Virus record (IMG/VR): IMGVR_UViG_3300028587_000004
Span: 1 to 39,185 of that record
Direction: 5' to 3' (one strand)
Source: a virus
Lineage: Duplodnaviria > Caudoviricetes
DNA: 39,185 bases
Shown piece by piece: positions 675-39,117 of this stretch. A model generated the notes under the pieces. That model was not told the DNA's origin, ran no database searches, and worked only from the letters and a program-made list of their open reading frames with translations. Made by a program: the position numbers and the translations under genes. The number at the start of each line of letters is the position of its first letter. The first letter of the stretch is position 1.

Positions 675-710
675 TTTATTTGTCTTCGGGCTTAAACATG
701 GGTGTCTCGG
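675..710 (-). repeat. dispersed 36-bp element
   Basis: CCGAGACACCCATGTTTAAGCCCGAAGACAAATAAA, directly after the stop of gene 712-1287. Confidence 0.9.
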
Positions 711-711
711 C

Positions 712-1287
712 TTACTGGGCAGCAGGATGGAAAACATGCATATCTGGGCTGGAATTGCGCTCACCTTCTGATTTGTTTTGGTCACCAAGGCTTTTCACAT
801 GAAACACTTCGGTCAGCAATTGATCTAGTGTCTTACGAAGCTCAGAGCGAAGAGAGTCTTTCAGATGGCTTCCAATCTGTACCATGTGCTGCTTCATTTC
901 ATTACTGAACCCATCCGCCGCAACCGTAAGCATGATGTACTCGGCACGAGAAATTGAGCTGTAAGACGAGTCGGTTTTCTTGCCGTTCTTATCCACTCGC
1001 TCAGTCCAGTAGTTATTAACTTGGCGCTCAAGTTGTTGTCGAATCGTTGTTGTTTCACCAGATGGGCGACCAAATGTATCAACAGGCGTATAGGCATGGT
1101 CGAAACCATCATCCAGTGCCTTTTGAAGAATCCCATCAAGCGCTTTGCCTACCCCCGCCGTAATTCGCTTATCCATCTCTTTCTCAACGCGGCTACTGAT
1201 GGCAGACGACAAATCTATATTGCCGATAATCTCCTCAGAAACTTTGTCAATGATTGATTGTTCCAGCTTTTCGATATTGAATTCCAT
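712..1287 (-). CDS. hypothetical protein (cassette cargo)
   Basis: 191-aa ORF with a GGAG RBS. Confidence 0.85.
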   Translation of the reverse strand: MEFNIEKLEQSIIDKVSEEIIGNIDLSSAISSRVEKEMDKRITAGVGKALDGILQKALDDGFDHAYTPVDTFGRPSGETTTIRQQLERQVNNYWTERVDKNGKKTDSSYSSISRAEYIMLTVAADGFSNEMKQHMVQIGSHLKDSLRSELRKTLDQLLTEVFHVKSLGDQNKSEGERNSSPDMHVFHPAAQ

Positions 1288-1295
1288 TTGAATCT

Positions 1296-1334
1296 CCGAA
1301 GTATTGCCCGTGTTACTACCACAGGACTAATTAA
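1296..1334 (+). repeat. degenerate 36-bp element, inverted partner of 675-710
   Basis: CCGAAGTATTGCCCGTGTTACTACCACAGGACTAATTAA. Confidence 0.5.
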
Positions 1335-1609
1335 AAAGAATTGCTACTGTTTTCGTTTTGAACTGATGAGATAGCGCCAAACCAATACTGCAATTTCCCG
1401 ATATTTTCTGATAGATAGATAGCTATATCACCTGACTCTTGGTATCCCCTCCGAAAATCAAGACAAGGGCCGCTATCATCAAAATCTGCTGTGCTATACA
1501 AAAAATCATGAACATCAACGCCAATCTCCTTGCAGGCGTCATGAACCGTTCCGCCTTGCCATCCAAGCAAATACATTAGGTTTTTTGTCCTAGTTTCAGG
1601 CTTCATCAC
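1331..1609 (-). CDS. hypothetical protein
   Basis: 92-aa ORF abutting its neighbours. Confidence 0.75.
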   Translation of the reverse strand: MMKPETRTKNLMYLLGWQGGTVHDACKEIGVDVHDFLYSTADFDDSGPCLDFRRGYQESGDIAIYLSENIGKLQYWFGAISSVQNENSSNSF

Positions 1610-1951
1610 TCACCCCTCAAAGTTACCGTTCTTAACCTTAGCCAAATACTGGGGCCATAGGACTTGATCTGCATAGCGTTCTGCTAGTTCTTGCAGGACT
1701 ACACGAAGCTTATCTGAGGCACTGGCACGCCCACCAGCATCGAAGTATTGGTGAATCGTCATCCAGACAGAAACAGCCTCATAAACATCTTCTGAGCCTG
1801 TCTGCTCGCCATCCCAAGTCAAAGCATGCAGCATTTTTCTGTAATCACTACGAATCTCAATAGCCTCAGCAGCCACCCATTCTTCTCTACCATCTTCCTT
1901 AGCATCCATAGGGCTATTGTTTCCTTCATACTTTCCGATGGGTTCAAACAT
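1610..1951 (-). CDS. hypothetical protein
   Basis: 113-aa ORF with an AAGGA RBS. Confidence 0.75.
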   Translation of the reverse strand: MFEPIGKYEGNNSPMDAKEDGREEWVAAEAIEIRSDYRKMLHALTWDGEQTGSEDVYEAVSVWMTIHQYFDAGGRASASDKLRVVLQELAERYADQVLWPQYLAKVKNGNFEG

Positions 1952-2114
1952 GGTTCATGATCCTTTGTGTTACTTCTTTTTCGATCAAGTCAGCAAACAA
2001 CTGCAGAGTCGCCGCATCGCTTACCGGCATTGGTTTATTTGATTCTTGACCATATGCAGTGCTGATCATGATCCCAGTTTCAAGTGCTAGAAGAATTACG
2101 TCTTCACGTTCCAT
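1944..2114 (-). CDS. hypothetical protein (56 aa)
   Basis: Hand translation MEREDVILLA...IMNHV with an AGGAG RBS. Confidence 0.6.
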   Translation of the reverse strand: MEREDVILLALETGIMISTAYGQESNKPMPVSDAATLQLFADLIEKEVTQRIMNHV

Positions 2115-2141
2115 ATCTCTATCTCCTATCTTCTAGGGTGA

Positions 2142-2408: not shown

Positions 2409-2409
2409 G

Positions 2410-2736: not shown

Positions 2737-2753
2737 TTTTACTTCTCCTTTGG

Positions 2754-2789
2754 TTAATTAAGCTTCTTGCTTAAACTCGGTTATCTCGG
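2754..2789 (-). repeat. dispersed 36-bp element
   Basis: CCGAGATAACCGAGTTTAAGCAAGAAGCTTAATTAA; first 28 nt identical to 38464-38491. Confidence 0.92.
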
Positions 2790-2797
2790 TGTTACCT

Positions 2798-2882: not shown

Positions 2883-2890
2883 GAGACTCA

Positions 2891-2950: not shown

Positions 2951-2951
2951 C

Positions 2952-2985: not shown

Positions 2986-3195
2986 ATGGCTAATAAAACA
3001 CTTGAACAGCAATCGAACGAGCTTCGCGCTCTCCTTCCACCAGCGGAACAGGGTCAGTACGCCGAGATAGGGCGTTTATCTGGGCTGCACCCTACATGGG
3101 TGTCATTGTTTGCTAGGGGTAAGGTACCCAACCCCGGCGTGGTCACATTGGACAAGCTTAAATGTGGCTTGGCTTGTTGGCGGAAGAAGAAGTAA
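2986..3195 (+). CDS. Cro-like XRE helix-turn-helix regulator
   Basis: YAEIGRLSGLHPTWVSLFARGKVPNPGVVTLDKL HTH signature; first rightward gene. Confidence 0.75.
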   Translation: MANKTLEQQSNELRALLPPAEQGQYAEIGRLSGLHPTWVSLFARGKVPNPGVVTLDKLKCGLACWRKKK

Positions 3196-3815
3196 TGCAG
3201 CTAGATATGCATCAAATACTTGAGCGTATGGCTGTAAGTTCTGAACTAGAGCAGATATTTGCCGAAGCTTTGGAATCCAGAGATACGCCTGCCTATTGGC
3301 ATCGAATCCGTGATTTGTGGGCCGTTTTAATGCCTAAGGTCATGGAAGGTGAGTATGAGCCGTACTTTGTGGATTGGACGCTGATATTCACGCCTATTGA
3401 ACGCGCCGTATGGACTGATATTCGATCTGCTGGGCTTAAATTTCACCCACAAATACCAGTTGGTCGCCGATTCATTGACTTTGGCGACCCAGTCAAAAAG
3501 ATCGGCATTGAATGTGACGGTTCGGCATTTCATGTCCTAGAAAAAGATATTGAACGCGATAAAGAACTACTAGAACACGGCTGGACTGTCTATCACTTGA
3601 AAGGTCGTGAATGTCTGGTTGGAGAATGCCCGGACGATTGGGACAGCTTTGAAGGGCGGAAGCATGAGATTCGGCAGTGGATGACACAATCCGCTGGCGG
3701 TCTAATCCGAGCTATTGCGGATAAGCACTATGGTAGGAAGGCTTACCCATATTGCACGCCCTATATTGACGAAGCCCTAACCGAACACCTATTGATTGAG
3801 ACTGACCATGGCTAG
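3195..3815 (+). CDS. DUF559/Vsr-like PD-(D/E)xK endonuclease
   Basis: QIPVGRRFIDF...IGIECDGSAFH...DIERDKELLEHGWTVYH; TAATG-coupled start at 3195. Confidence 0.75.
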   Translation: MQLDMHQILERMAVSSELEQIFAEALESRDTPAYWHRIRDLWAVLMPKVMEGEYEPYFVDWTLIFTPIERAVWTDIRSAGLKFHPQIPVGRRFIDFGDPVKKIGIECDGSAFHVLEKDIERDKELLEHGWTVYHLKGRECLVGECPDDWDSFEGRKHEIRQWMTQSAGGLIRAIADKHYGRKAYPYCTPYIDEALTEHLLIETDHG

Positions 3816-5455: not shown

Positions 5456-5636
5456 AAAACTGACAGTTTGGGCTGCTGGCCTGACCGCAGAACAAATGCG
5501 CCCGTTGCTAGTTGAATTGGCTGATTACGCGGTTGATTCTGAGATGGTAAGTATTTATGACTTTGCGCCGTATTGGTCACACACAGGCGACCCGCTGATT
5601 GAAGGCCAAAAGACTCACGAAGACGATGATCTTTGA
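5439..5636 (+). CDS. hypothetical protein
   Basis: Start MKKDFEK with a GAGGAG RBS. Confidence 0.7.
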   Translation: MKKDFEKLTVWAAGLTAEQMRPLLVELADYAVDSEMVSIYDFAPYWSHTGDPLIEGQKTHEDDDL

Positions 5637-5637
5637 G

Positions 5638-5674
5638 CCGAGATCGCCCGCGTTTAAGCCAGAAGACAAATGAA
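5638..5674 (+). repeat. dispersed 36-bp element
   Basis: CCGAGATCGCCCGCGTTTAAGCCAGAAGACAAATGAA, directly after a stop codon. Confidence 0.9.
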
Positions 5675-5697: not shown

Positions 5698-5961
5698 ATG
5701 ATGACATTCAAGTTGCCTGAATTCCCGAAGAACTTTGACGATCTACTATCTGCTTACAGTGAAGCAGTAGCCACTGGTGGAGAGGTAGGGGAATGTTATT
5801 TGAACCTATACGATCTTATCAATGCAGACCGGGAAGCCTGTGCTAAGGCAGCACTAGAGGAAGCAATTAAATTGGCAGAAAAGTACAACGATGGACGCTA
5901 CGCCAACTGTGCTGATTTGATTGCAGGCGCTATCCGCCAACTCTCTGACGAGATAACCTAG
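5698..5961 (+). CDS. hypothetical protein
   Basis: ORF with an AAAGGA RBS; REACAK-type phage accessory motif. Confidence 0.7.
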   Translation: MMTFKLPEFPKNFDDLLSAYSEAVATGGEVGECYLNLYDLINADREACAKAALEEAIKLAEKYNDGRYANCADLIAGAIRQLSDEIT

Positions 5962-5984
5962 CCACGAAGTAAAGGACAAATAAA
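5948..5984 (+). repeat. degenerate 36-bp element
   Basis: ACGAGATAACCTAG...GACAAATAAA overlapping the stop codon; centre diverged. Confidence 0.55.
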
Positions 5985-6518: not shown

Positions 6519-7115
6519 ATGACCTTCTCTAGCCGTCCAAAGAAGTGCGCTATCTGTAGAAACCCATTTCAACCTCGCAGCATGACGCATAAAGCCTGTA
6601 GTCCTGATTGCGCAGTTGAGCTAGCAAGGATTGAGCGAGAGAAGAAAGAACGCAAGGAAGCCCGTTTAGAGGCCCGTAGAGCGGCTGAAGAGAAAAGGCA
6701 GCACAAGGAGAAGCTGGAGTACTACAAGAAGCTCCAATGGCACCTAGAACGCGCTCAGACAGCTTTCAATGCCTATATCAAGGCTAGGGACTTTGGAAAG
6801 CCATGCGGGTGCTGCGGTAGGCCTTTGGACTGGTATTTGAACAAGGACATAGATTGTGGTCACTTCAGGACTGTTGCAGCGGCAGGGCACCTTAGATACA
6901 ACGAAGATAACGCCTCAGCTCAATCAGTATATTGCAACCGTAACAAGGCAGGGAATCAGGCAGAGTACAGACAAAACCTGATTCAAAGAATTGGGGTTGA
7001 GAGAGTCGAGGCACTGGAAAACGACAATCGGCCACGGAACTGGACGCGGGAAGAATTGGCAGAGATAACCGCCCATTACCGGGCAAAGCTAAAGGAGCTT
7101 AAAGATGGAAGATAA
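6519..7115 (+). CDS. ninG: NinG/Rap family junction endonuclease
   Basis: KKCAIC...CSPDCA, AQTAFNAYIKARD, PCGCCG, DCGHFRTV, LRYNEDN, CNRNKAGN motifs. Confidence 0.9.
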   Translation: MTFSSRPKKCAICRNPFQPRSMTHKACSPDCAVELARIEREKKERKEARLEARRAAEEKRQHKEKLEYYKKLQWHLERAQTAFNAYIKARDFGKPCGCCGRPLDWYLNKDIDCGHFRTVAAAGHLRYNEDNASAQSVYCNRNKAGNQAEYRQNLIQRIGVERVEALENDNRPRNWTREELAEITAHYRAKLKELKDGR

Positions 7116-7368
7116 CTGGCAACCAATCGATACTGCACCTGAAGGTAAGCTCGTTGTAGTTATGTGGCTAGATAAGGAAGATATTGATCATCCGGCGCGT
7201 TATGCGTTTGATTGGAAGGATGATGGTTTGTGGCTGGACTACTTCAATGAACATGAGCATTACGCTATTGCTGGCGTGGCGCGAGGTAATTCTGAGGACG
7301 CACCATACCAATACTGGATGCCCCTACCTAGCCCACCGAGACAACCTATAAACGGAGAGGAAGAATAA
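7105..7368 (+). CDS. DUF551-like protein
   Basis: WQPIDTAP...YWMPLPSPP. Confidence 0.75.
   Translation: MEDNWQPIDTAPEGKLVVVMWLDKEDIDHPARYAFDWKDDGLWLDYFNEHEHYAIAGVARGNSEDAPYQYWMPLPSPPRQPINGEEE
7336..7368 (+). repeat. degenerate 36-bp element
   Basis: CCGAGACAACCTA---TAAACGGAGAGGAAGAATAA ending in the stop codon. Confidence 0.45.
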
Positions 7369-28240: not shown

Positions 28241-29341
28241 TTGTCCCGAGACGGAAATGGCGTGTACTCGCTTCCTACAAATAGTTGGAATCCCGCGATT
28301 AATGGGAATTCAGCAACCCCCGTTGATTGGCAAGCCCTTATTGATGATGTAGCTGCGGCACTAACTCAATCTGTTTCTGCTGATGGTCAAACGCCTATGA
28401 CGGGTGATTTGAACATGAATGGGAATCGGATTGAAAGCTTGGCTGCTGGCACTTCTACGACTGATGCTGCCAATGTTGGTCAGATTTACTCTCAAGGCAC
28501 CGAAACTGACGTAGCCAGCGCTGCAACAACTGACATTGGGATTGTTAATTCTAATTTCATCAGAATCACTGGGACAACTACGATTACCAGTCTAGGCACA
28601 ACTTACCGTGGCCCTCGGTTTGTTCGTTTTGCCGGGATTCTTACACTTACACATAACGCCACTACTTTGATTCTTCCGGGCGGTGCGAATATCACAACTG
28701 CAGCAGGAGATAGGGCTATTTTTGTTCCTAAAGGAAGCCCATCAGACGGATGGAATTGTGTTGTTTATGAATATGCCACAGGCGGGAAAATCACTGGGAA
28801 TCTTTCTGTCACTGGGAGCCTTTCTGTAACGGTAGATAGTTCTATAACTGGTAATTCAACTGTTACTGGTGATTTGACTGTAGATGGCAATGTAACGCTA
28901 GGTAACGCTGGGTCAGACACTGTAACAGCGAATGGTGCGTTATCCGCCACCAATGGAGTTGTAGTTACTGGGAATGGGTTACGCCAAGCTAGTCAGCACA
29001 TGATTGGTTACAACACTGGCGGCGGTGGGAATGTTACGCAAGCAACGTCTAAAGCGACTGCCGTGACATTAAACACGGCATCTGGCCGAATCACCATGAA
29101 TAATTCAATAATCAACGCTAATTCAGCAATTGAGTTTCAATTCAATAACTCTCTGATTGATGGTGACACATTGGTATTACTCGGTATCAGCGGTAATGTT
29201 GCCTCTGCGAATTCGTATTGTGTAGGTACTCGTTCGATAGGTGGAGGTGGGGTTGTTATCGGCGTAAGAAACTTAACTGCAGGCAATCTTTCAGAAGCAA
29301 TACAGCTTACTTTTGCACTACACAAAACCGCAACATCTTAA
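28241..29341 (+). CDS. tail fibre/spike
   Basis: MSRDGNGVYSLP, DGQTPMTGDL anchor; VTGxLxV beta-helix repeats. Confidence 0.8.
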   Translation: MSRDGNGVYSLPTNSWNPAINGNSATPVDWQALIDDVAAALTQSVSADGQTPMTGDLNMNGNRIESLAAGTSTTDAANVGQIYSQGTETDVASAATTDIGIVNSNFIRITGTTTITSLGTTYRGPRFVRFAGILTLTHNATTLILPGGANITTAAGDRAIFVPKGSPSDGWNCVVYEYATGGKITGNLSVTGSLSVTVDSSITGNSTVTGDLTVDGNVTLGNAGSDTVTANGALSATNGVVVTGNGLRQASQHMIGYNTGGGGNVTQATSKATAVTLNTASGRITMNNSIINANSAIEFQFNNSLIDGDTLVLLGISGNVASANSYCVGTRSIGGGGVVIGVRNLTAGNLSEAIQLTFALHKTATS

Positions 29342-29356
29342 CTAAAAGGAAACAAC

Positions 29357-29803
29357 ATGGCCGAAAACTTTATGCGTACCGTACAGATTCTGACTCTGAA
29401 CGCCAACCAACGCGCCCATTGCGAACTATTCAATCCAGAAGATAGTGGTTACAAAGCAATCGTGGATGCAATTTGGGTTTCTCGCTCTAGCGGGTTCTCT
29501 ATCGTCGGTCGTGGTGGCCCGATGATGAATGATGCTACTTTCCCCGAGTCACGCGGCTTGCCGATTCAAGACGGTGCGCCCCGTCAATATAGTTCTTGCC
29601 ATGCTAGGTTCCAGAAAACGACTTTCCCGGCAGAAGTTATCCAAGGTGGTCAATACTGGAATCACGAGAATGTTTCGGGTCTGGTCAAGATCGAAGCCCC
29701 ATTTGTTCTCGGCGAAAACAACAGCTTGATGATCCGTAATAATCTGGATGGTGAAAAGCTGATGGTTTCCTTCCTGTGGCATGAAGAACCACTGGGTAGC
29801 TGA
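29357..29803 (+). CDS. hypothetical protein
   Basis: 148 aa with an AAAGGA RBS. Confidence 0.75.
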   Translation: MAENFMRTVQILTLNANQRAHCELFNPEDSGYKAIVDAIWVSRSSGFSIVGRGGPMMNDATFPESRGLPIQDGAPRQYSSCHARFQKTTFPAEVIQGGQYWNHENVSGLVKIEAPFVLGENNSLMIRNNLDGEKLMVSFLWHEEPLGS

Positions 29804-29816
29804 TTAAATACAGATC

Positions 29817-30116
29817 ATGGAAACGAACGATGAAATCCGGGGGAAAAGGATAAACTTTGACCCGACAATTAATCTAGGCCATATTGGCTCAATGATTGCT
29901 GTATTGATTGCAGGTGTTCTCGCTTATTCTGACTTAAAGCAAGATCAGGTTGTTGTTAATCAAAGGCAAGCTTACCTAGAGGCTAGAATAAAAGAGTCTG
30001 AGGACAGAAGTAACCAGAGAATGAACGAGATGAGTTCTGACGTAAAAGATATGCGGAAGGCGGTGGAGAATATCGCCAACATCATTATCCTTAAAATCAA
30101 GCAGAGCGGGAAATGA
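29817..30116 (+). CDS. single-TM coiled-coil membrane protein (holin/antiholin candidate)
   Basis: FDPTINLGH followed by a hydrophobic helix; precedes the endolysin. Confidence 0.55.
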   Translation: METNDEIRGKRINFDPTINLGHIGSMIAVLIAGVLAYSDLKQDQVVVNQRQAYLEARIKESEDRSNQRMNEMSSDVKDMRKAVENIANIIILKIKQSGK

Positions 30117-30544
30117 AAACCTCTGACGTCGGGATCAACCTAATCAAACGTTTTGAAGGATTTGAGTCTGAACCTTACCTGTGTCCGGCAGGTAAATGGA
30201 CTATCGGTTATGGATGGACACACGGTGTTACTAAAGACTCAAAGCCAATCACTGAAGCAGAGGCGACTAAGCTACTTGCTGACGGACTCGGTAGTTACGA
30301 GATTGGTGTTCTTGATTGCGTTGATGTTGATCTTCAGCAGTGCGAGTTTGATGCTCTGGTGTCTTTTGCATACAATCTCGGGGTTCATGCTCTACGCGGA
30401 TCAACCCTACTAAAGAAGCTGAATGAGGCAGATTACGAGGGTGCGGCAGATCAGTTCCTGAGATGGGACAAAGCGAATGGTAAGGTATTGGCTGGCCTTA
30501 CAAAACGTAGAGAAGCAGAGCGGGAGTTATTCTTAAATGGCTGA
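30113..30544 (+). CDS. endolysin, GH24 lysozyme
   Basis: IKRFEG...YLCPAGKWTIGYG, FDALVSFAYNLG, GLTKRREAERELF. Confidence 0.95.
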   Translation: MKTSDVGINLIKRFEGFESEPYLCPAGKWTIGYGWTHGVTKDSKPITEAEATKLLADGLGSYEIGVLDCVDVDLQQCEFDALVSFAYNLGVHALRGSTLLKKLNEADYEGAADQFLRWDKANGKVLAGLTKRREAERELFLNG

Positions 30545-30815
30545 ACTGCGCCGCAAAACTGATGGCTGGTTTGGTTGGCTAACCCGGCTGTGGGACTGGA
30601 TCGACCAAAGAGAAATAGACAAGCATCTTGTCTCTGTCATGGTTCTCTACGGGACGATGATTGTGACTCAATGGGCTATGGGGTTTGCTGAAGCTCAGTC
30701 AGGAATGGGCCGAAGTGGAGTCGAGATAGCCGCTATTATCGCTGCGGTTCTTGGTCCTTACTCTATACTTCAAGCTGCTGCTATTAAGTTCTACTTCGAC
30801 AACCGGACGCCATGA
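30537..30815 (+). CDS. holin candidate (2 TM)
   Basis: Two hydrophobic helices; lies in the lysis cassette. Confidence 0.6.
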   Translation: MAELRRKTDGWFGWLTRLWDWIDQREIDKHLVSVMVLYGTMIVTQWAMGFAEAQSGMGRSGVEIAAIIAAVLGPYSILQAAAIKFYFDNRTP

Positions 30816-31240
30816 TCAATCCTTGGTTAATCCTTGCTGCTATTGTTGCACTGTCCGCTTCGTTTGTTGGTGGATATACAACAGGTTCCTCTCATAAAGA
30901 CAAAGAGTGGAAATTAGTCATTGCAGATCAGAAGGATAAAGCTAGACTCAAGGAACAGGAACTACAAGGAGCCGTTGATGAAATTACAAAGCAATCAAAG
31001 AAGCGCCAAGATGCTATTCAGCGCAAGCTTAATGACGCTCTTGATGGGCTGCGCAACCGCCCCGACAGATTGCCCGAGGATTCCCGTTCTAGCTGTCAGG
31101 GAGCCACTGGGGCCGAGCTTTCAAGACCAGATAGCACCTTTCTTGAAGGGGAAGCTGCAAGGGCAGACAGACTCAGAGAAGCGCTTGGAACCTGCTACGA
31201 ATACGCAGACAAAGTAGAAGGTCTTAAAACTCCCAAGTAA
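30812..31240 (+). CDS. Rz: i-spanin
   Basis: N-terminal TM, coiled coil, RADRLREALGTC. Confidence 0.8.
   Translation: MINPWLILAAIVALSASFVGGYTTGSSHKDKEWKLVIADQKDKARLKEQELQGAVDEITKQSKKRQDAIQRKLNDALDGLRNRPDRLPEDSRSSCQGATGAELSRPDSTFLEGEAARADRLREALGTCYEYADKVEGLKTPK
30978..31217 (+). CDS. Rz1: o-spanin lipoprotein nested in Rz
   Basis: +1 frame, AAGGAG RBS, lipobox LLMG-C, Pro-rich mature part. Confidence 0.75.
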   Translation: MKLQSNQRSAKMLFSASLMTLLMGCATAPTDCPRIPVLAVREPLGPSFQDQIAPFLKGKLQGQTDSEKRLEPATNTQTK

Positions 31241-31469
31241 GCACGACTCTTGTGACACTTGGCGCAGGAAGGCCGATTTCATCCCCTGCCACACACCAGA
31301 CAAAAGAAGCCAGCATTCCGTATTCTTGGCCGTGCTTGTTCTTTATTGACCGCAGGAATGGATTAGGCCTATCCCCGAACGTGATATAAAAGTTCTTGTC
31401 GTTAAACCAGTCAAACGCATAGGAATTAACTGGGAAGCACAAAGACAGTATCAATAGTAGTCTGAACAT
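31224..31469 (-). CDS. small secreted protein
   Basis: Signal-peptide-like N-terminus ending SYA-F. Confidence 0.5.
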   Translation of the reverse strand: MFRLLLILSLCFPVNSYAFDWFNDKNFYITFGDRPNPFLRSIKNKHGQEYGMLASFVWCVAGDEIGLPAPSVTRVVLTWEF

Positions 31470-31561
31470 TTCTTTGTTTGGTAGGGTGATTATTAAGTAG
31501 TGGGTGTCGCTTCATATACGACAGCATTGCGCCAATTCGAAACGTTGCTATCCCCACAAGT

Positions 31562-31660
31562 CAAAGCTACTGGCTGATGGTTCCCCATTTCCACCTTGCG
31601 GTGTGCTTCCTCAGCTCCCCATTTATCGACACGCCTCTCTAGGCCGCACCAATAGCTTTG
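31562..31660 (-). ncRNA. structured ncRNA candidate with GNRA tetraloops
   Basis: 12-bp closing stem CAAAGCTATTGG/CCAGTAGCTTTG; CACC-GCAA-GGTG; TGG-GGAA-CCA. Confidence 0.5.
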
Positions 31661-31789
31661 CTTCTGGAGACTCCGTTTCGTGGAGTCATGCCGGCCAATA
31701 CGTCTATTAGCACCTAGGATAGGATGAACCGCCGTTATTGACGGCCTTTACCTATACGGCTGGAGACTGGCTTGCCCCGGACCTGATTA

Positions 31790-31874
31790 GCCCGTTGCTA
31801 GGAATCGAACCCAACTTGACCATGGGCGCAATCTCCATGCGTATAGGTGCTAGTCTTTCCTAGCTGTCAGCGGA
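31790..31874 (-). ncRNA. tRNA-like element / pseudo-tRNA
   Basis: Acceptor TCCGCTG/CAACGGG, GCTAG/CTAGC arm, T-arm TTGGG-TTCGATT-CCTAG; anticodon arm non-canonical. Confidence 0.55.
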
Positions 31875-31890
31875 CAAAGATAGTCTGCAA

Positions 31891-32003
31891 TAGGGGCCAG
31901 TGCTGGGTTAATCTGGCTTGGTGGCGAGTCCCAGTAGGGATACTGTCGGGATTAGAGCCTCTTTAGCCACCGTTTTCTCGCGTATCAGCCTACGCATTCC
32001 CTA
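31891..32003 (-). ncRNA. cloverleaf ncRNA candidate with possible kissing loops
   Basis: TAGGG/CCCTA, GCGTA-GGCTGA-TACGC, GGTGGC/GCCACC, GCCAG-..CAGCA-CTGGC. Confidence 0.6.
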
Positions 32004-32009
32004 ATTCAA

Positions 32010-32038
32010 AGTATAGACTATTTCTACAGCATTTTCAC
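32010..32038 (-). promoter_or_regulatory. putative promoter for the ncRNA cluster
   Basis: GTGAAA-N17-TATACT; predicted +1 near 32003. Confidence 0.45.
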
Positions 32039-32380
32039 ATATGCTCGGTTCTTTCGAGTCTCCTTAAGCATTGGGTATCCTTTGGTATAAAGGAAGCTTA
32101 CAAGCCTGACAGCGTACTTAGACGGTCTGCCTAGAAACTCGCCCATTTCTGAGTACGATACGAACCTGTTTTGCGCCTTGAGCCAAGCGTATAACTTTCC
32201 GTTCTTGGTTTCTTCAAACGGCGTATTCTGGTTATTTCGTGTTTCCCGGCTAGTGTCTGTACGCGGTTTGTATTCGTCTTGCTCGTGGATTGCTATTTCA
32301 AGGTGGGCCACTTGCTCCGAAAAGAACCAAGGCCCTGCATGCTGCGGTAACGGCTGATAGCCGTAATGGTCATAGATCAT
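32024..32380 (-). CDS. hypothetical protein, possible C-terminal winged HTH
   Basis: LYAWLKAQNRFVSYSEMGEFLG...LYTKGY. Confidence 0.6.
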   Translation of the reverse strand: MIYDHYGYQPLPQHAGPWFFSEQVAHLEIAIHEQDEYKPRTDTSRETRNNQNTPFEETKNGKLYAWLKAQNRFVSYSEMGEFLGRPSKYAVRLVSFLYTKGYPMLKETRKNRAYVKML

Positions 32381-32391
32381 ATTTTCTCATT

Positions 32392-32427
32392 TCAATTTGT
32401 CTTCTGGTTTAAACGCGGTTATCTCTG
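32392..32427 (-). repeat. dispersed 36-bp element
   Basis: CAGAGATAACCGCGTTTAAACCAGAAGACAAATTGA; supplies the stop of gene 32409-32831. Confidence 0.92.
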
Positions 32428-32831
32428 AGCGAACGCCTATGCTCCATGAGCATTTTGTTCATCTCTTCTGACGAATAGCCTTCTGATGACCATTTCAAAA
32501 GCTGCATCACAATTTCCTGTTCGTCCGTGTAGTCGGCAGTAATATCAACACCGCCACAAAGAAACGCATGCCATGAGTCTTCCTTGAAACGAGGGTGAAG
32601 AACGTATTTGAAGATATTCACGCCAACTCTCCATGAGACTACAGGCGGGTATTCATTACGATCACCACGGTTTTTACTGCCGAACAAATTCCATGAATAC
32701 CCGGCATCGTATTCAACAGGCACTACATTTTCTGGCATCGTATCAATCTTAAATCCACTCACATTCGGGTATTTGTACTTAACCCATTTGTGGATAGGGT
32801 GTTCAAATGATTTTGTTGTCAGGATAGACAT
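32409..32831 (-). CDS. hypothetical protein (cassette cargo)
   Basis: 140 aa with a GGAGGAG RBS. Confidence 0.8.
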   Translation of the reverse strand: MSILTTKSFEHPIHKWVKYKYPNVSGFKIDTMPENVVPVEYDAGYSWNLFGSKNRGDRNEYPPVVSWRVGVNIFKYVLHPRFKEDSWHAFLCGGVDITADYTDEQEIVMQLLKWSSEGYSSEEMNKMLMEHRRSLRDNRV

Positions 32832-32844
32832 TTCTCCTCCTAAT

Positions 32845-32880
32845 CTGAGACAGACGTGTTTAAGCCCAAGGCCAAATTAA
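32845..32880 (+). repeat. dispersed 36-bp element, inverted partner of 32392-32427
   Basis: CTGAGACAGACGTGTTTAAGCCCAAGGCCAAATTAA. Confidence 0.85.
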
Positions 32881-32990
32881 AATAAATCCTCATCCTTCAT
32901 CAACCTACTCCCTACCCTAATACACCTACCAATAAAGCAAGCAAAGAGAAACATAAGACAGAGAACTAAAAGGATAATTAGGTAAGTCAT
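32877..32990 (-). CDS. small membrane peptide (37 aa)
   Basis: Hand translation MTYLIILLVLCLMFLFACFIGRCIRVG...; ATGA overlap. Confidence 0.5.
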   Translation of the reverse strand: MTYLIILLVLCLMFLFACFIGRCIRVGSRLMKDEDLF

Positions 32991-33670
32991 TTCCCCTGCT
33001 CCTTGGCGATGGCGGCGCGGATGCCTTCGCTTAATGTCGGGTGGTAGCCATTGCTATCAAGTTTGGTGACATGTGGTAGGCGATAAAATCTGTGGTATCC
33101 ACCGTCCCGATCTTCAGTCTGAACCTTACTTTCTAGCCAACGATACAGCTCAGCATCCTCCCTATCCATTGCTGCTTGCTCGCGTAGGGCTGTGGATTCG
33201 GCTTTGAGTTTCGTATTCTTTGCACGTTCGGCAGCGGCAAGGTCACTCCAAAGAATGTCGCCGGGGCCTTTTACTGCGGCACGGAGACGATATAGCTCGG
33301 CTAGTTGTTCTGCGCTGACTCCCGCATCCCTCCTATCCCCACATTGGGCGATGGCTTGGCGCATAGATTTCAGCAAATCAACAAGCCGAAGCGTAGTTTC
33401 TGCATTAATCATGATTGTTTTGCCGGGCCAAGTGATGACATCGACTTCACGAAGCAGCTTTTCTAGATTGGACGCCGGCAGCTCCCCACTCCCCGTAGCC
33501 TTCTCTGGATCGTGTGGCCTACCTGCATCAATGCCATCGAAATACGCTTTCTTCAGTTTTTCAATAATCTCCGGGCTTTCGCCAGCAAACCCGGTATAAG
33601 CCAGAAAATGCCCGAAATAGCATTCATCTGTATGAGGGGTGCCACCGCAACTGCATGTATTTGTGTTCAT
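32987..33670 (-). CDS. mosaic accessory protein (Ea22/Ead-like region)
   Basis: REDAELYRWL and IRAAIAKEQG motifs; start MNTNTC. Confidence 0.65.
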   Translation of the reverse strand: MNTNTCSCGGTPHTDECYFGHFLAYTGFAGESPEIIEKLKKAYFDGIDAGRPHDPEKATGSGELPASNLEKLLREVDVITWPGKTIMINAETTLRLVDLLKSMRQAIAQCGDRRDAGVSAEQLAELYRLRAAVKGPGDILWSDLAAAERAKNTKLKAESTALREQAAMDREDAELYRWLESKVQTEDRDGGYHRFYRLPHVTKLDSNGYHPTLSEGIRAAIAKEQGK

Positions 33671-34587
33671 GGATGTACTCCAAATCCGTCGCATTCATGG
33701 CAAACGTGCAAATCGTCGTCGCTGCACTTAAAGTGTTGCGCTGCTGTAGGCTCTGCTCCATGATTGGCGGGTGGGTGGGCGTAGAGCTTGGTTCCGATTG
33801 ATGGCTTTTCATCCCATCGAACAATCGGGTTGCCCATCAAGTCGCTATCTACAACCTTGCCTACTGCCTCCCCATCCCGCTTGCTGGCAAGGTGGGCTTC
33901 GACACGCGGCATGCCAAGAACAACGGCTCGCAACTCTTGCTCATGACCTTTCACGCCGCAAACAACATGCCCCCAGCTCGACCATTCGCCCCCCGAAACT
34001 CGGTAGCGTGCTTGGAAACCATGATCGCGTAGCGCGTGCTGAATTAATGCGAGAACAGCCATCACACTTCCAAACTCGACCGTTTCTTTATCAGTAATAC
34101 GGCCTCCGACATGAGCAATCCGCTGGCCTAGATTCATCCCTTCGGTGGGGCTGCTATCCCCATCCGTCATCCCTTCGGCTGCTGGCTGCTCGGCTGGTGG
34201 GGTGCGGCGTTGCTCACGATCCGCGAACAGATCAGCACGTAGCTTGTCGATTGCTTCCTTGATTGCTGGCTTCGTATCATTGAACCAGTCCGAGTCACCG
34301 CCGTCCTCTTTGTTTGGCTGTTTTGCCAGCATGAAAGCGGTATAGGCGATGTCAATCACTCGCGGCGTCAGGCGGTTGTGCAGATCATCTTGCAGGACAT
34401 AGGCAAGCAGATCAGTCCAAGGCAACAGTGTGTCCTGCGTGGTGTTGGTCAGTCCTTCGGTGTTTGGTGTCATTTCGATAGCCTCTTGAAGTATTGGCCT
34501 GAATTTTCTCTGGTTGCAGCAGTCGCACGGCTTGTATTCGTACCCGCACAATTTCTCTACATCGCATGAAGAACAGTGGCCGTTCAT
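33667..34587 (-). CDS. mosaic accessory protein
   Basis: 306 aa; IGTKLYAHP motif; Cys clusters at both ends. Confidence 0.7.
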   Translation of the reverse strand: MNGHCSSCDVEKLCGYEYKPCDCCNQRKFRPILQEAIEMTPNTEGLTNTTQDTLLPWTDLLAYVLQDDLHNRLTPRVIDIAYTAFMLAKQPNKEDGGDSDWFNDTKPAIKEAIDKLRADLFADREQRRTPPAEQPAAEGMTDGDSSPTEGMNLGQRIAHVGGRITDKETVEFGSVMAVLALIQHALRDHGFQARYRVSGGEWSSWGHVVCGVKGHEQELRAVVLGMPRVEAHLASKRDGEAVGKVVDSDLMGNPIVRWDEKPSIGTKLYAHPPANHGAEPTAAQHFKCSDDDLHVCHECDGFGVHP

Positions 34588-35303
34588 TTCATCGTCTCCG
34601 GCTGTTCGGCAATCGCAAGCATCAAAACGTCAAAGTCTTCCATCCACTCGGAGATTCTGGCTGGAGGGAGCCAACCGCCACGCGAATCCACTGTGTATAG
34701 CTCGCACCAGCGTTGGATAATGGATTTGGCTTGTTTTAGCAGAACTATCGACGGCACCTGCGCTACGGTGCTCGGCACAGGGGCGGCGGATAGCATCACA
34801 TCCCAGAGGAGCTTTCTGTACTGACCGTTAGCCCCTAGCGGGACATCAGCGTTTAGCATTTCCTCTGTCGGCTCTTTCGGCACCAGCACATACCCATCCG
34901 GCACCTTAGCGGCCTGCGCTTGGGTGAGTTGCTGGCTGGACAGGGAGCGAATCTTGTCTGCCCAATCCGAGGCCGTGTCGTCAGGCGAGTAGCAACCCAG
35001 CGCATCACTGATAGCTTTTGCTCTTGCTAGTTCTATTTGGTGCTCTGCCTCGCGCCTCATTTCGTGCGCGTCAGTAAGATCCTCTTTCAGCCGCCCGACT
35101 TCCTTTTGCAGCGCCTCGATCTGCCCGTAGTAGTGGGCCTCTGCTGCTGTCTTGTGGCCGCCTTCGAATGTTGGCTGCTGCACGGAGGCAAGGGCGGCTT
35201 GCCACACTTCCCAGAACATTTCATGGTGATCGTCGTCATAGCCGTTGCTATCTACCCAGCGCTCAAACGCTTCCCTGCATGCATCGTTGTTTGTGGTGTT
35301 CAT
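34584..35303 (-). CDS. Eaa/DUF551-like mosaic accessory protein
   Basis: REAFERW, WQAA, VPDGYVLVPKEPTEEM...MLSAAP motifs. Confidence 0.75.
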   Translation of the reverse strand: MNTTNNDACREAFERWVDSNGYDDDHHEMFWEVWQAALASVQQPTFEGGHKTAAEAHYYGQIEALQKEVGRLKEDLTDAHEMRREAEHQIELARAKAISDALGCYSPDDTASDWADKIRSLSSQQLTQAQAAKVPDGYVLVPKEPTEEMLNADVPLGANGQYRKLLWDVMLSAAPVPSTVAQVPSIVLLKQAKSIIQRWCELYTVDSRGGWLPPARISEWMEDFDVLMLAIAEQPETMK

Positions 35304-35313
35304 GGTTTAGTCC

Positions 35314-35514
35314 TTAGCCTGCGGTAGGCGGTTGCTGTTTCTTTGCTTTCTTAAATACCTCGTCCCTGAAGTTTTGGCACAGGCGGTGTAGGGCGTCAGA
35401 ATCCAGCATGGACAGAGGGATTGACGTAGCGCCTTCATCGCCGATAGCGTCTTTAAGGATGGCGAAGCTCGGCACCTGAAAATCCTTTACTTCAATTTCA
35501 ATGGTTGTCTTCAT
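35314..35514 (-). CDS. hypothetical protein
   Basis: 66 aa with an AAGGAG RBS. Confidence 0.75.
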   Translation of the reverse strand: MKTTIEIEVKDFQVPSFAILKDAIGDEGATSIPLSMLDSDALHRLCQNFRDEVFKKAKKQQPPTAG

Positions 35515-35525
35515 CTCACTTCTCC

Positions 35526-35741
35526 TTAACTATTAACCTTGTCGTGGGCGGCTAGGGCTTCATCTGCTAAGGCGTTGGCCTCTGCGCGAATTCCAGCAAA
35601 GCCGCTGCATCCATAAACCCGTAAATTCTTAAGCGCCTCAGCCAGCCTCTCTGCATCCTCGCGGGAGGATTGGAGTGCTTTCTCTGCAACGCATGCATCA
35701 CAGCAATCTTTCCTAAATCCGTGATAACAGAACTCGCTCAT
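35526..35741 (-). CDS. hypothetical protein
   Basis: 71 aa; ATGA overlap. Confidence 0.7.
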   Translation of the reverse strand: MSEFCYHGFRKDCCDACVAEKALQSSREDAERLAEALKNLRVYGCSGFAGIRAEANALADEALAAHDKVNS

Positions 35742-36112
35742 TTCTTCTCTCCAAGGGCGCGGATAGCTTTTGCGGCTTCATCATTACGAACCCACTCTGA
35801 CATGCCTTCTAGTACCTCGGCACACTCCTCAATCGTCTCCGCTCTTACTTGCTCTGCATGGGTAGTGGCATGGGATAGCAATACAACATCATGGCTCCCA
35901 AATTCCTCAATGACATTCTCAGGATGCGGCTCTATGTAATAGTCAAACGGACTTGCTTTGATTGTGCCCACAACCTCCAGCCCCTTAGGCTGCTCTGGGG
36001 TGGCACTCATGTGGTAATCGACCATGCGCACTGTCACATCCGATGCAGCGTCTTTGTCGTTTGCTATTAGCGCGGCAACGTATTCGCCAATAAGCTCAGA
36101 TGCTTTGTTCAT
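35738..36112 (-). CDS. hypothetical protein
   Basis: 124 aa, AAGGAG RBS, IEECA...AIRAL motif. Confidence 0.75.
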   Translation of the reverse strand: MNKASELIGEYVAALIANDKDAASDVTVRMVDYHMSATPEQPKGLEVVGTIKASPFDYYIEPHPENVIEEFGSHDVVLLSHATTHAEQVRAETIEECAEVLEGMSEWVRNDEAAKAIRALGEKK

Positions 36113-36150
36113 TCACTCACTCCTTGTAGGTGGGGCGATAAAAGGCTTTG

Positions 36151-36186
36151 TTTATTTGGCTTCTGGTTTAAACACGGCTTTCTCGG
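36151..36186 (-). repeat. dispersed 36-bp element
   Basis: CCGAGAAAGCCGTGTTTAAACCAGAAGCCAAATAAA; encodes the end of gene 36152-36322. Confidence 0.92.
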
Positions 36187-36322
36187 TGTTGTACCAATGA
36201 ACCAACAAAGCAAACGCGCTCCAGTAGATTCCTGATCCGAACACCGTGATAGTCACGTCACCAACAAGGCATGACAGCAAAATTGCCAATACGGTGATTC
36301 CGTAGCACTGTAAGCGGCTCAT
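36152..36322 (-). CDS. small membrane protein (56 aa)
   Basis: Hand translation MSRLQCYGITVLAILLSCLVG...KPEAK. Confidence 0.55.
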   Translation of the reverse strand: MSRLQCYGITVLAILLSCLVGDVTITVFGSGIYWSAFALLVHWYNTEKAVFKPEAK

Positions 36323-36489
36323 TTATCCCACTCCAAAGTCTTTTGCTTCTTTAGGTAGTAATACACCTGAGATGGCGTAGTACCAGCTTGTTTGGCGGCG
36401 CTGTATGGGTTATGGGGCTTTCCATCCTTGCGGATCGTGCCTACCAGAGACACGGCTAGCAGGGCCTTCTTACACTGTGGGCGGCTCAT
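36319..36489 (-). CDS. small HTH DNA-binding protein
   Basis: NPYSAAKQAGTTPSQVYYYLKK; start MSRPQ. Confidence 0.6.
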   Translation of the reverse strand: MSRPQCKKALLAVSLVGTIRKDGKPHNPYSAAKQAGTTPSQVYYYLKKQKTLEWDK

Positions 36490-36695
36490 GCTGGACCCCT
36501 TGCAGCGGATGCCGGTGTCGTCACTTTGAAACACTGAGACATTCGTTCTGCATATTCAGACCCGCGCCGGCTGACTTCAATCGCGGCAGAACGGATCCGG
36601 TTGCAATCTTCAAAGGTTGCGGCAGCTGGGCTGAACTGTATGCCGGCAGAGTAGTGGACATTTACTACAAACATCCAAACAGTAATTGTGCTCAT
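36486..36695 (-). CDS. hypothetical protein
   Basis: 69 aa with ATGA overlaps. Confidence 0.6.
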   Translation of the reverse strand: MSTITVWMFVVNVHYSAGIQFSPAAATFEDCNRIRSAAIEVSRRGSEYAERMSQCFKVTTPASAARGPA

Positions 36696-36775
36696 GCTGC
36701 ACCCACCACAATCAGCAGAAGGCAGAACAGGCCGGCCAAGGTGATCAGGATTGATTGGTTAATCTTGCTTTGCAT
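36692..36775 (-). CDS. 27-aa hydrophobic peptide
   Basis: MQSKINQSILITLAGLFCLLLIVVGAA with a GGAG RBS. Confidence 0.5.
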   Translation of the reverse strand: MQSKINQSILITLAGLFCLLLIVVGAA

Positions 36776-36806
36776 TTCAGTTACTCCGTTCGTTGTTGAT
36801 GTAGTA

Positions 36807-36834
36807 ACTATAGACCAATTAAAATATATATCAA
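36807..36834 (-). promoter_or_regulatory. internal sigma70-like promoter
   Basis: TTGATA-N16-TATAGT with a very AT-rich upstream region. Confidence 0.65.
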
Positions 36835-36885
36835 TCCATTTAGTTGCTATTTAATATAATAGTTTAATGAAAGTCGATAGCCAGC

Positions 36886-37275
36886 CTATATAAGCTCTAT
36901 TCCTAGCTCTGTAGCAGCATAGGCGCTGATCTTGTCGATGTACTCGGTGAATTCAGACACATCTAGGGTAGTCGTGGATATACCGATTAAACGGCCATCA
37001 GGAGTTTCCTCTGCCCCTATGAACTTGAGCTTGAACATTTCATGCCAAGCCTCAGGGGAGAACTGTTTGCCGCCTATCCATGCGCTTTCGGCTATCTCGT
37101 TTAATAGTCGCCAGAGGAGCTTATTCTGCTCAACTGAGCGCTTGGACTTGTACTCTTGTACCGTTACGGATAGAGGTTTGCCTTGGTCTGAACAGGCTCT
37201 AGCGTTAGCCTTCAAAAACGCAATCAGAGAACCTAGATTCTCCGAATTGCGTAGTGTGAAAGTGCGTTGAAGCAT
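36886..37275 (-). CDS. ninB: NinB/Orf-family recombination protein
   Basis: KRSVEQNKLLW, EAWHEMFK, STTTLDVSEFTEYIDKI motifs. Confidence 0.85.
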   Translation of the reverse strand: MLQRTFTLRNSENLGSLIAFLKANARACSDQGKPLSVTVQEYKSKRSVEQNKLLWRLLNEIAESAWIGGKQFSPEAWHEMFKLKFIGAEETPDGRLIGISTTTLDVSEFTEYIDKISAYAATELGIELI

Positions 37276-37592
37276 TACCAAGGAATGTCTTCTGGTGTTT
37301 CTTCTTTATTCGACCTTTGGTTTTGTCCTCGGTCATCTCGGGCCTTTGGCTCACTTGCTTTAGCCAGCAACAGAACTTCGTCGTTAAAACGATCCGAGCC
37401 TTGGCAGTGATTCCACCATTTACCCGTGTTCTCGTTCTTCTGAGCCGGGTAGGAGACAAACTCACCCTTGGCCGTGGAGACAATACGACAACCTCGGATG
37501 GTCATAAAAGCTGGAACACCATCCTTTGAATGTAGATTTAGGTTGAAAGAAGGGTGTTTTCCGTTATTGAACCACTCTACAGATAGATGCAT
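37275..37592 (-). CDS. SpoVG-like nucleic-acid-binding protein, probable SSB
   Basis: IRGCRIV...GEFVSYPA; acidic tail EETPEDIPW; next to the recombinase. Confidence 0.65.
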   Translation of the reverse strand: MHLSVEWFNNGKHPSFNLNLHSKDGVPAFMTIRGCRIVSTAKGEFVSYPAQKNENTGKWWNHCQGSDRFNDEVLLLAKASEPKARDDRGQNQRSNKEETPEDIPW

Positions 37593-38308
37593 TACTTTTG
37601 CTCCTTAGGTACGGCCTTCATGGCGGCGCGTTGTTTTGAATCGAATCGAGTCCAAAGTGCTGCTTGTTCGTCAGCATCTAGTTTCTGAGACTGAATATAG
37701 GCATTAGCGCCAACTGGGTTGCCAGAAGCAAGTAGGCCTACGACCTCCATAGCGATGCCTGTGAGGAATTCACGGCTCTCTTCGCTCTGAGCCTCCCATA
37801 GACCGCCTGTAGGGGTTGCTGGGTTCGCTTTCTTAGGCTCTGGATCAGGCCCATGCAGATCGCCCTTATGCCACAAGTCAAGTGCCGCACCGAAGCGCAT
37901 AGCAGCGTTTCTGAGGGCATCCCCGATGACTTCCTTGATTGCGTCTCCGCCAGACTTATCCCCAGCGTGCCCATAGCCTAACCGCGATGTATTGCACACG
38001 GTAAGACGAATCCACATACCGCCATATTCATCCAGCACAGGAAGGCCGTTAGGGCCGATTGCTAGCGGCTCCCAGAACCATGCCGGATCAGCATCTAGGA
38101 GGCGGTCTGTAAGGGCTGCGTGCCCTACGTAGTCAAGGTGGATTACCTTGGGATGGTGCCAGCCTCCGCATACATCACACCGAACCCCCGCCTTGAAGTC
38201 GTTGCGTACTTCGTCAGTCTGTTGCTTGGTGGGCTTGGGTAGCTTGCTGATTTGGTTTGCTGGGAAGGGTTCCCGCAATAGCTCCAGACCTGTTTTCTTC
38301 GTTTCCAT
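37592..38308 (-). CDS. Rad52/Sak-like single-strand annealing protein
   Basis: LREPF, LDYVGHA..TDRL, KEVIGDALRNAAMRFG..LDLW. Confidence 0.8.
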   Translation of the reverse strand: METKKTGLELLREPFPANQISKLPKPTKQQTDEVRNDFKAGVRCDVCGGWHHPKVIHLDYVGHAALTDRLLDADPAWFWEPLAIGPNGLPVLDEYGGMWIRLTVCNTSRLGYGHAGDKSGGDAIKEVIGDALRNAAMRFGAALDLWHKGDLHGPDPEPKKANPATPTGGLWEAQSEESREFLTGIAMEVVGLLASGNPVGANAYIQSQKLDADEQAALWTRFDSKQRAAMKAVPKEQK

Positions 38309-38417
38309 CTACATTCTCCGTGATTAAGTTAATTAACTGCTCTCTACCTACTTCGTGAAAGTACCGCTCTTCTTCCATTAGATACCTCCGGGTTACTTCT
38401 ATAAATGTTTCAATCAT
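38214..38417 (-). CDS. hypothetical protein
   Basis: AAGGA RBS, but a long overlap with the recombinase gene. Confidence 0.4.
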   Translation of the reverse strand: MIETFIEVTRRYLMEEERYFHEVGREQLINLITENVDGNEENRSGAIAGTLPSKPNQQATQAHQATD

Positions 38418-38455
38418 AGTTCCTTGGTGGCTCAGGATTCGAGCCTGTGTTTCTT

Positions 38456-38491
38456 TTTATTCGGCTTCTTGCTTAAACTCGGTTATCTCGG
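38456..38491 (-). repeat. dispersed 36-bp element
   Basis: CCGAGATAACCGAGTTTAAGCAAGAAGCCGAATAAA; CCG AGA TAA is the methyltransferase end (P-R-stop). Confidence 0.92.
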
Positions 38492-38956
38492 CTGAGATTC
38501 CTTCATGAAAATCATCCAGTGCGTATTTGATGCCTTGCCGCTTGGATGACAAAACAACGGCTTACGGTCTGTAAGCTTAAGAATGTCACTGGTCTTGATC
38601 TGAGTCTGATTCCATTTGAAGACTAGAACCCCGTCGTAATCAAGCACCCGGAAACACTCTTCAAATCCCTTGGCCAAGTCATCACGCCACTGGCCAGACA
38701 ATCGACCATACTTCTTGAACATCCAGCTATTAGAGCCAAGCTTCTCTAAGTGCGGCGGGTCAAATGCTACAAGCTTGAATGAACATTCCTTGAATGGTAA
38801 CGCCGTGAAATCCATAAGCTGATCTGGCTCAATGCTTAACTCACGACCATCACAAAGGATATGATCTTCATGCCTTATATCGCCATAGATAGTGTCTGGG
38901 TGCTTACGGTCAAACCACATCATCCGACTACCACAGCAAACGTCTAAAACTCGCAC
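38483..38956 (-). CDS. SAM-dependent (probably DNA amino-) methyltransferase
   Basis: VLDVCCGSRM motif I, FDPPH catalytic motif, GVLVFKW. Confidence 0.85.
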   Translation of the reverse strand: MRVLDVCCGSRMMWFDRKHPDTIYGDIRHEDHILCDGRELSIEPDQLMDFTALPFKECSFKLVAFDPPHLEKLGSNSWMFKKYGRLSGQWRDDLAKGFEECFRVLDYDGVLVFKWNQTQIKTSDILKLTDRKPLFCHPSGKASNTHWMIFMKESQPR

Positions 38957-38967
38957 AATTATCCCTC

Positions 38968-39117
38968 TCAGCGGCAGAAGCCTAGTTTAAACAACAGACC
39001 AAATAAAAATGCCTTGATCCTTTGAACTCTCCTCATAGGAACCCTACTCCTATATCCGGGACAAGCCATAAAACAATGAACTGTCCAATCTTGGGCTTTG
39101 TGTGAGAACTGTTGCAT
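38968..39117 (-). CDS. hypothetical protein (49 aa) spanning the circular junction
   Basis: Hand translation MQQFSHKAQDW...KLGFCR; TAATG coupling. Confidence 0.45.
   Translation of the reverse strand: MQQFSHKAQDWTVHCFMACPGYRSRVPMRRVQRIKAFLFGLLFKLGFCR
38972..39007 (+). repeat. dispersed 36-bp element, inverted partner of 38456-38491
   Basis: CGGCAGAAGCCTAGTTTAAACAACAGACCAAATAAA. Confidence 0.75.

Follow-up and report, generated by a model that had tools for sequence, protein, structure and literature searches.

Boundary sequences of lambdoid phages lie at gene edges; they are short and conserved, and a role in guiding modular exchange has been proposed for them in phages that have Rad52-like proteins. 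Each such stretch is specific to one junction and shared among phages, unlike a single motif found a dozen times in both orientations within one genome. Other described sites also bear on the subject of this report, a 36-bp element dispersed through the genome of a soil phage (IMG/VR record IMGVR_UViG_3300028587_000004, all 39,185 nt of which were analyzed and are called the window below). The pdif (XerC/D) modules of Acinetobacter plasmids have short asymmetric sites in inverse orientation around single passenger genes (PMC6863613; PMC9771954); the promoter early stem-loop (PeSL) cassettes of T4-type phages contain a repeated intergenic motif with a sigma70 early promoter and a stem-loop (PMC2839356); integron attC sites and clusters of attC sites lacking integron integrases (CALINs) occur in phages (PMC9892861); and the stoperators of cluster A mycobacteriophages are many asymmetric 13-bp sites in short intergenic spaces (PMC9283540).

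Here we report that the 36-bp element recurs in the early arms of the genome, that in three places two copies face each other across a single gene, and that two independent relatives, the metagenomic contigs L128 (1,325 bp) and L132 (2,111 bp), each carry one copy next to genes unrelated to those in the window. With moderate confidence, we read the element as a conserved, asymmetric, protein-read junction site, likely used for exchanging single accessory genes between related phages.

The element resembles pdif modules in layout and PeSLs in distribution, but it fails the defining sequence tests of both. As in pdif modules, single genes are bracketed inversely (three brackets in the window, and one left open in L132), and no recombinase lies beside the modules in either system. 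Its length of 36 bp differs from the 11+6+11 of pdif, its center is invariant where that of pdif is variable, and we found no chromosomal cognate. The XerC-6-XerD 28-bp consensus (PMC6863613) had no match in the window with 3 mismatches allowed, and the XerC/D pattern differed from all 14 copies (window and relatives) at 6 to 8 of 19 positions, where the background mode is 7 to 8; we rejected a pdif or XerC/D site because the copies match the consensus no better than background. Like PeSLs, the copies repeat in variable phage regions, by stop codons and orphan genes, and are tied to gene replacement, here through two short relatives. Unlike PeSLs, they have neither a sigma70 promoter nor a stem-loop, which excluded PeSL identity, and they occur in both orientations with one-gene inverted pairs in a small, lambdoid-type genome. 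The attC sites of integrons likewise lie at gene 3' ends and often hold the stop codon, and an integrase could act in trans, but our element forms no hairpin and is arranged in inverted brackets instead of direct arrays, with 3 of the 12 window copies antisense at 5' ends. The core of attC, GTTRRRY, is absent from all 14 copies on either strand. With no hairpin, no core, and an orientation that is not direct, attC identity was rejected too, which bears out the first-pass annotation of this DNA in its statement that the motif matches neither the attC nor the pdif consensus.

Results

All 11 positions listed by the first-pass annotation contain the sequence it quoted. Its eight strong copies are well separated from chance: leave-one-out matrix scores ran from 21.5 to 50.3 bits, against a best score of 14.6 in 30 codon-block shuffles. 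The three degenerate copies fared unequally under a gapped three-box model, for which the best score in 15 shuffles was 21.0. The sense copy at 5948 to 5984 (+), which provides the stop of the gene ending at 5961, stood up with a score of 24.0, while the doubtful one at 7336 to 7368 (+), at the end of gene 7105-7368, scored at chance level (14.5). The antisense copy at 1296 to 1334 (+) scored 15.7, a nonsignificant value seen about one to two times per shuffled genome, but its placement is like that of the other antisense copies. A further degenerate copy, overlooked before, scored 24.6 at 37305 to 37341 (−); it lies inside the 3' end of an SSB-like gene (37275-37592) and may be a coding coincidence. 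Three candidates from a half-site scan (7060, 7983, and 6474) were not clearly above chance (0.05 to 0.8 expected per genome over five scans).

All eight strong copies lie in the early arms, which make up 43% of the genome (p=0.0013 by length), and copies occur at 12 of 47 arm genes versus none of 28 late genes (Fisher p=0.0026), as expected from the earlier remark that the late block has none. Their association with stop codons, also proposed earlier, held as well. Seven of the eight overlap a stop codon or lie within 4 nt of one, compared to 12.2% of random arm 36-mers (p=3e-6); two of these seven stops belong to small open reading frames called in this analysis (32877-32990, called after the motif was known, and the doubtful 38968-39117), and setting both aside leaves five of eight (p=0.001). 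Among the copies outside brackets, the one at 5638 to 5674 (+, sense; 37 bp, with one inserted base) starts 1 nt past the stop of the gene ending at 5636, and the one at 36151 to 36186 (−, sense) codes the final 11 residues and the stop of gene 36152-36322. The exception, at 2754 to 2789 (−, sense), is not at an annotated stop and lies about 100 nt past a leftward sigma70-like promoter (2918-2891), itself about 70 nt from a Cro-like gene; this copy occupies the expected start of the first left gene. Nine of the 12 window copies follow transcription, and three (1296, 32845, and 38972) oppose it.

The three antisense copies and their one-gene inverted brackets were newly recognized in this work. 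Each antisense copy pairs with a sense copy such that their CCGAGA ends face one enclosed gene. In pair A, the copy at 1296 to 1334, which overlaps the stop of 1331-1609, lies upstream, and a strong copy at 675 to 710 (−), starting 1 nt past the stop codon, lies downstream of a 191-aa gene (712-1287, −; 576 nt; phrog_14855) that is full length judged by its homologues. In pair B, the most diverged strong copy (38972 to 39007, +) and a sense copy that provides the stop (38456 to 38491, −) enclose a 157-aa DNA methyltransferase gene (38483-38956, −; 474 nt; phrog_954) whose conserved domain fills the bracket. In pair C, strong copies at 32845 to 32880 (+) and 32392 to 32427 (−), the latter again providing the stop, enclose a 140-aa orphan gene (32409-32831, −; 423 nt). 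The span between facing CCGAGA ends is 585 nt for the 576-nt gene of pair A, 480 for 474 in pair B, and 417 for 423 in pair C, within 9 nt of gene length in all three. The antisense copies at 1296, 32845, and 38972 end 9, 14, and 16 positions (8, 13, and 15 nt) before the start codon, and that of L132 ends 10 positions before it. The chance of a one-gene bracket at all three window antisense copies is p=0.0014 to 0.0022; leaving out the weak 1296 copy gives p=0.017 to 0.019, and counting the L132 copy, which has no closing partner, gives three of four (p=0.012).

The bracketed genes belong to families that are widespread elsewhere without motif-coded tails: no such tail occurs in 119 methyltransferase homologues or in 150 phrog_14855-like homologues. 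The conserved domain of the methyltransferase ends 9 nt before the motif, and its N terminus is in the shortest class among its homologues (7 of the 106 scored). Cargo codon usage was uninformative. As a separate observation, several homologues of the bracketed methyltransferase (P0015-P0133) begin and end in sequence that resembles run-through into attC sites, so the family may move in integron cassettes elsewhere.

Inverted pairs around one passenger gene are also what the terminal inverted repeats of a nonautonomous transposon-like carrier would look like, whether a miniature inverted-repeat transposable element or a passenger cassette, with a transposase acting in trans and lone copies as decayed ends. 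The imperfect 9-bp direct subrepeats visible in the element would fit such ends, and 36 bp is a plausible length for them. The details point the other way. No target duplication was found in either polarity (at most 3 nt in the 7 pairs compared, against a background median of 2 to 3), although old duplications could have decayed. The sharp edge of the element is its inner CCGAGA end and the outer edge is soft, and the two members of a bracket are not especially similar (25 and 24 of 36 positions identical, versus a mean of 27 among copies). No transposase was seen, no match over 80% of the 36-mer occurs in 72,556 plasmids or 50,697 phages, and no autonomous partner with the same ends turned up among plasmids, phages, GTDB, or IMG/VR with patterns that catch 2 to 4 of the 8 window copies. 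We consider transposon ends unlikely.

The two relatives allow the same places to be compared between phages. A scan of JGI metagenomes returned six stretches, four of which belonged to the contig of the window itself and were set aside; L128 and L132 are independent and of the same lineage as the window. L128 and the window both contain a 108-aa gene, a Tyr-Gly gene whose DNA is 79% identical, and the beginning of the conserved gene that follows. At one place, an unrelated 74-aa gene with a sense copy in L128 corresponds to a 56-aa gene with no copy in the window; the two genes gave no BLASTP alignment, and a homologue search with the 56-aa gene returned only itself. Conversely, the window copy at 2754 to 2789 is missing at the same place in L128. 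L132 shares a winged-helix gene (30% protein identity) and the noncoding stretch downstream of it. In both phages an antisense copy lies one gene upstream of the winged-helix gene, and the slot, occupied in L132 by a 129-aa gene, holds unrelated cargo (best match 26 aa, E 0.016); the window copy at 32392 to 32427 is missing at the same junction in L132. All three sense copies in alignable regions thus have no counterpart in the relative, and similarity resumes 4 to 11 nt past the outer end of the element at each of the three junctions. Copies are 77% alike across contigs and 74% alike within the window; the proteins shared with relatives are 30% identical and the shared coding DNA 79%. All three alignable junctions, and in addition one slot with swapped cargo, are in line with the suggestion that gene presence/absence breakpoints fall on the motif, within the limits of contigs of 1.3 and 2.1 kb in which crossovers cannot be placed to the base.

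Two observations concern the shared regions themselves. At L128:1-360, the homologue of window 1610-1951 stops after about 27 residues and the remainder looks nonphage; L128 may be a chimera whose join lies about 80 nt past the motif. The noncoding stretch between the winged-helix gene and an Rz-like gene (window 31540-31760, −; L132:1225-1420, +) is 83.6% identical over 67 nt, forms a long stem in the two-sequence alignment with three pairs changed on both sides, and has a sigma70-like site beside it (32038-32010). It had no match in Rfam, among tRNAs, or among cultured phages, and is a candidate undescribed RNA.

The anatomy of the element was drawn from ten strong copies: eight in the window and those of L128 and L132. 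Nine are 36 bp long, and 14 of the 36 positions are invariant, in blocks. The CCGAGA end is sharp, and the softer outer end fades into A-rich DNA. The center is a partial 14-bp palindrome around GTTTAARC, flanked by two arms that do not form inverted repeats; both arms are kept at 5948, 37305, and 1296, three degenerate copies in which about 7 to 12 central bases differ. A stop is always met in one sense and one antisense frame, and in a second sense frame in 7 of the 10. No consensus RNA fold was found (RNAalifold, 0 pairs), no single-strand hairpin (folding energies within the shuffle range), and no Rfam match over the window at E<=1, and we rejected an RNA structure or Rfam family. Sigma70 promoter counts at the copies did not exceed shuffle means, with a single 9/12 match over 1 of 12 copies at chance level, and no terminator was found at them. 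A protein-level origin was also rejected, as the copies occupy three frames, include antisense ones, and have invariant third positions. Because copies occur in different reading frames and antisense, the element is confirmed to be conserved as DNA, under nucleotide-level constraint, in agreement with the first-pass annotation.

Much of this evidence could also be read as a dispersed regulatory site (an operator, roadblock, or antitermination-type site) for a phage DNA-binding protein, whose copies would stay alike because of their function and at which genes are shuffled secondarily by general recombination, as for PeSLs. Confinement to the early arms, the three-quarters of window copies that follow transcription, the copy about 100 nt past the leftward promoter, and a partly palindromic core that could accept a dimer in either orientation would all suit it, as would the three helix-turn-helix-type candidate proteins that the phage encodes. 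Stoperators are likewise asymmetric sites in short intergenic spaces, but they are 13 bp long, follow transcription, and fail when reversed (PMC9283540), whereas a quarter of the window copies and one of the two copies in relatives (L132 antisense, L128 sense) oppose it, and we found no repressor of that type. A regulatory site would not predict one-gene inverted brackets, the copies have no RNA fold and, apart from the one chance-level match, no sigma70 promoter or terminator, and none of the three copies was kept at orthologous junctions. We regard regulation as possible, though only tentatively so, and favor an exchange-joint role because of the one-gene inverted brackets and the turnover with neighboring genes.

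The element appears confined to a small phage lineage. Pattern scans of IMG/VR returned 0, 4, and 0 stretches, the four being one sequence in four contigs (E 0.38), and protein scans of IMG/VR with the 712-1287 and winged-helix proteins found no relative. Protein scans did yield IMG/VR loci for the annealing protein (43), the capsid (the best 80 of 599), and the 108-aa protein (the best 80 of 286), yet in a profile search over 229 loci (3.09 Mb) only L128 and L132 scored, both of which are in the training set. A host transcription-factor site or REP would be expected to recur in bacterial chromosomes; exact patterns in GTDB gave 0 and 5 matches, where about 0.5 and 9 were expected; none of the five has the left box, and the GTDB matches L234-L238 and L239-L240 do not contain a full site. 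In 401 genomes of one bacterial order a loose pattern matched in two, versus five hits for the control. Exact patterns in these scans catch only two to four of the eight window copies. De novo repeat detection in 185 stretches turned up families in 36 of them, and this motif was in none of those families; the scan was insensitive, as it recovered the window family in the right half and missed the left half. The winged-helix family has 5 members among 50 candidates, with longest Logan contigs of 39,920 and 18,167 bp. No description of the element was found in the literature, in a search short on subscription papers and without supplements.

The window is a circular phage contig of about 39 kb (127-nt terminal repeat), and the two sequencing runs that contain the phage are soil metagenomes, one of which may be its source. 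The structural block (9139-31240) is of podovirus type, with a capsid 52 to 54% identical to those of Mx8-like phages, and no near DNA match exists among cultured phages. The early arms are lambdoid in type, with a Cro-like gene, a replication initiator, a NinG/Rap junction endonuclease (6519-7115, +), a NinB/Orf recombination mediator (36886-37281, −), the DNA methyltransferase, and a single-strand annealing protein (37592-38308, −) whose Sak/Rad52-like resemblance, noted earlier, was supported. Scans of the window proteins (77 against PHROGs, 63 against Pfam, and 77 open reading frames against NCBIfam) turned up no integrase or any other recombinase, no transposase, and no CI-like repressor, and the earlier statement that no site-specific recombinase is encoded stands. 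With neither a CI-like repressor nor an integrase found, the phage appears to be lytic and derived from a lambdoid layout. A Tyr-Gly-repeat-rich short gene lies at 2142-2408 (−) and recurs in L128 behind the same 108-aa gene. One genome of the searched order (L241, G086) contains a capsid gene with 72% identity, in a search that matched 4 of the 401 genomes; this gives a weak hint of a betaproteobacterial host.

Other repeats occur in further phage loci. In a capsid relative (85% identity; L148:1986-3119, G004), four hairpins that look attC-like by eye lie between small genes, resembling a CALIN array. A phage with a related annealing protein (L036:1542-18690) has about eight sites of a different dispersed, partly palindromic element, often just 5' of genes, and in L139, L153, and L158 a common short palindrome recurs near promoter-like stretches.

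Discussion

The element is real, lineage-specific, and arranged like the ends of cassettes, and it can be classed as a phage module-junction repeat with a proposed function. Blockwise invariance, fixed length, and conservation across phages point to a sequence-specific protein that binds it, probably one encoded by the phage, as no host copy was found. Two coinfecting genomes would then cross over at two elements flanking a gene, and the enclosed gene would be replaced. Strand exchange would most likely fall to the phage's own Sak, Orf, and Rap: with no host copy and no encoded recombinase found, a phage DNA-binding marker combined with these proteins seems the most likely route. Inverted placement may prevent a single intramolecular event from deleting the bracketed gene, the stop codons within the site would terminate any frame cut short by a crossover there, and lone copies could be ends whose partner was lost. 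The best candidate for the reader is the 118-aa predicted winged-helix protein (32024-32380, −), encoded by the last gene of the left operon, since it is the sole full-length protein that L132 also encodes and it resembles a DNA-binding protein. A DUF559/REase-like nuclease (3162-3815, +), 3' of the Cro-like gene, is a second candidate.

Together with orf and rap, Rad52-like proteins promote mosaicism where homology is short and diverged, and the minimal pairing segment of Red-beta is 23 to 27 nt, with a divergence figure quoted as 17% (PMC3945230). Such proteins might make the element a passive homology patch with no reader, spread or homogenized by Sak-type annealing and kept where its stops and spacing were of use. 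The phage does encode Sak, Orf, and Rap, the copies at 2754 to 2789 and 38456 to 38491 share 28 identical nucleotides, and every copy closes frames on both strands. Even so, in 44 of 45 pairs the exact runs common to copies are 6 to 14 nt, below the Red-beta segment, and mean copy divergence is 25%; with such short runs and such divergence, plain annealing would be inefficient. A passive patch would also have to explain why three contigs of diverged phages keep the blocks invariant and the length fixed, with flanks that were not co-converted, and we think it very unlikely.

Several points weigh against the exchange-joint reading as well, and the figures just given for run length and divergence are among them. 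The comparative support comes from two short contigs, in which intergenic DNA is too diverged for base-level placement of crossovers, and the antisense copy of L132 lacks a sense partner to close its bracket. Any mosaic phage would be expected to have breakpoints at gene edges, and since a 36-mer would be tolerated only in intergenic DNA, junction location alone is little proof. No empty inverted pair was found, strict alternation of orientation along the left operon is not significant (p=0.07 to 0.12), and the bracketed genes are not clearly foreign in composition (GC 0.43 to 0.46, versus 0.49). The phage encodes no recognizable recombinase, the winged-helix assignment is a lead below naming thresholds, and the tie between that protein and the element is our inference. 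Finally, a search for excision joints, circles, or inversions, of the kind the first-pass annotation had suggested, found none in 29186-39185 among contigs, with 27 to 35% of each run read; the main run had no cover from 36985 on, which left pair B outside. Overall, the earlier interpretation of the element as a recombination or insertion site for gene acquisition is partly supported: the three junctions and the swapped-cargo slot agree with it, and the rearranged joints it might leave were not seen. The stronger proposal, that soil phages have here a dedicated gene-capture or exchange system that is not an integron, Xer, transposon, or PeSL system, in which a lineage-specific protein reads the site and single genes, fitting between inward-facing copies with only a few bases to spare, are loaded and swapped as cassettes, strikes us as doubtful.

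It has long been asked how phages acquire and exchange small accessory genes so neatly at gene edges, and the usual answer is random joining followed by selection. With a short fixed site that encloses single genes and moves along with them, a directed mechanism could be put to the test using a 36-base substrate and two or three candidate proteins. Should the element be regulatory instead, it would represent a new type of dispersed phage control site.

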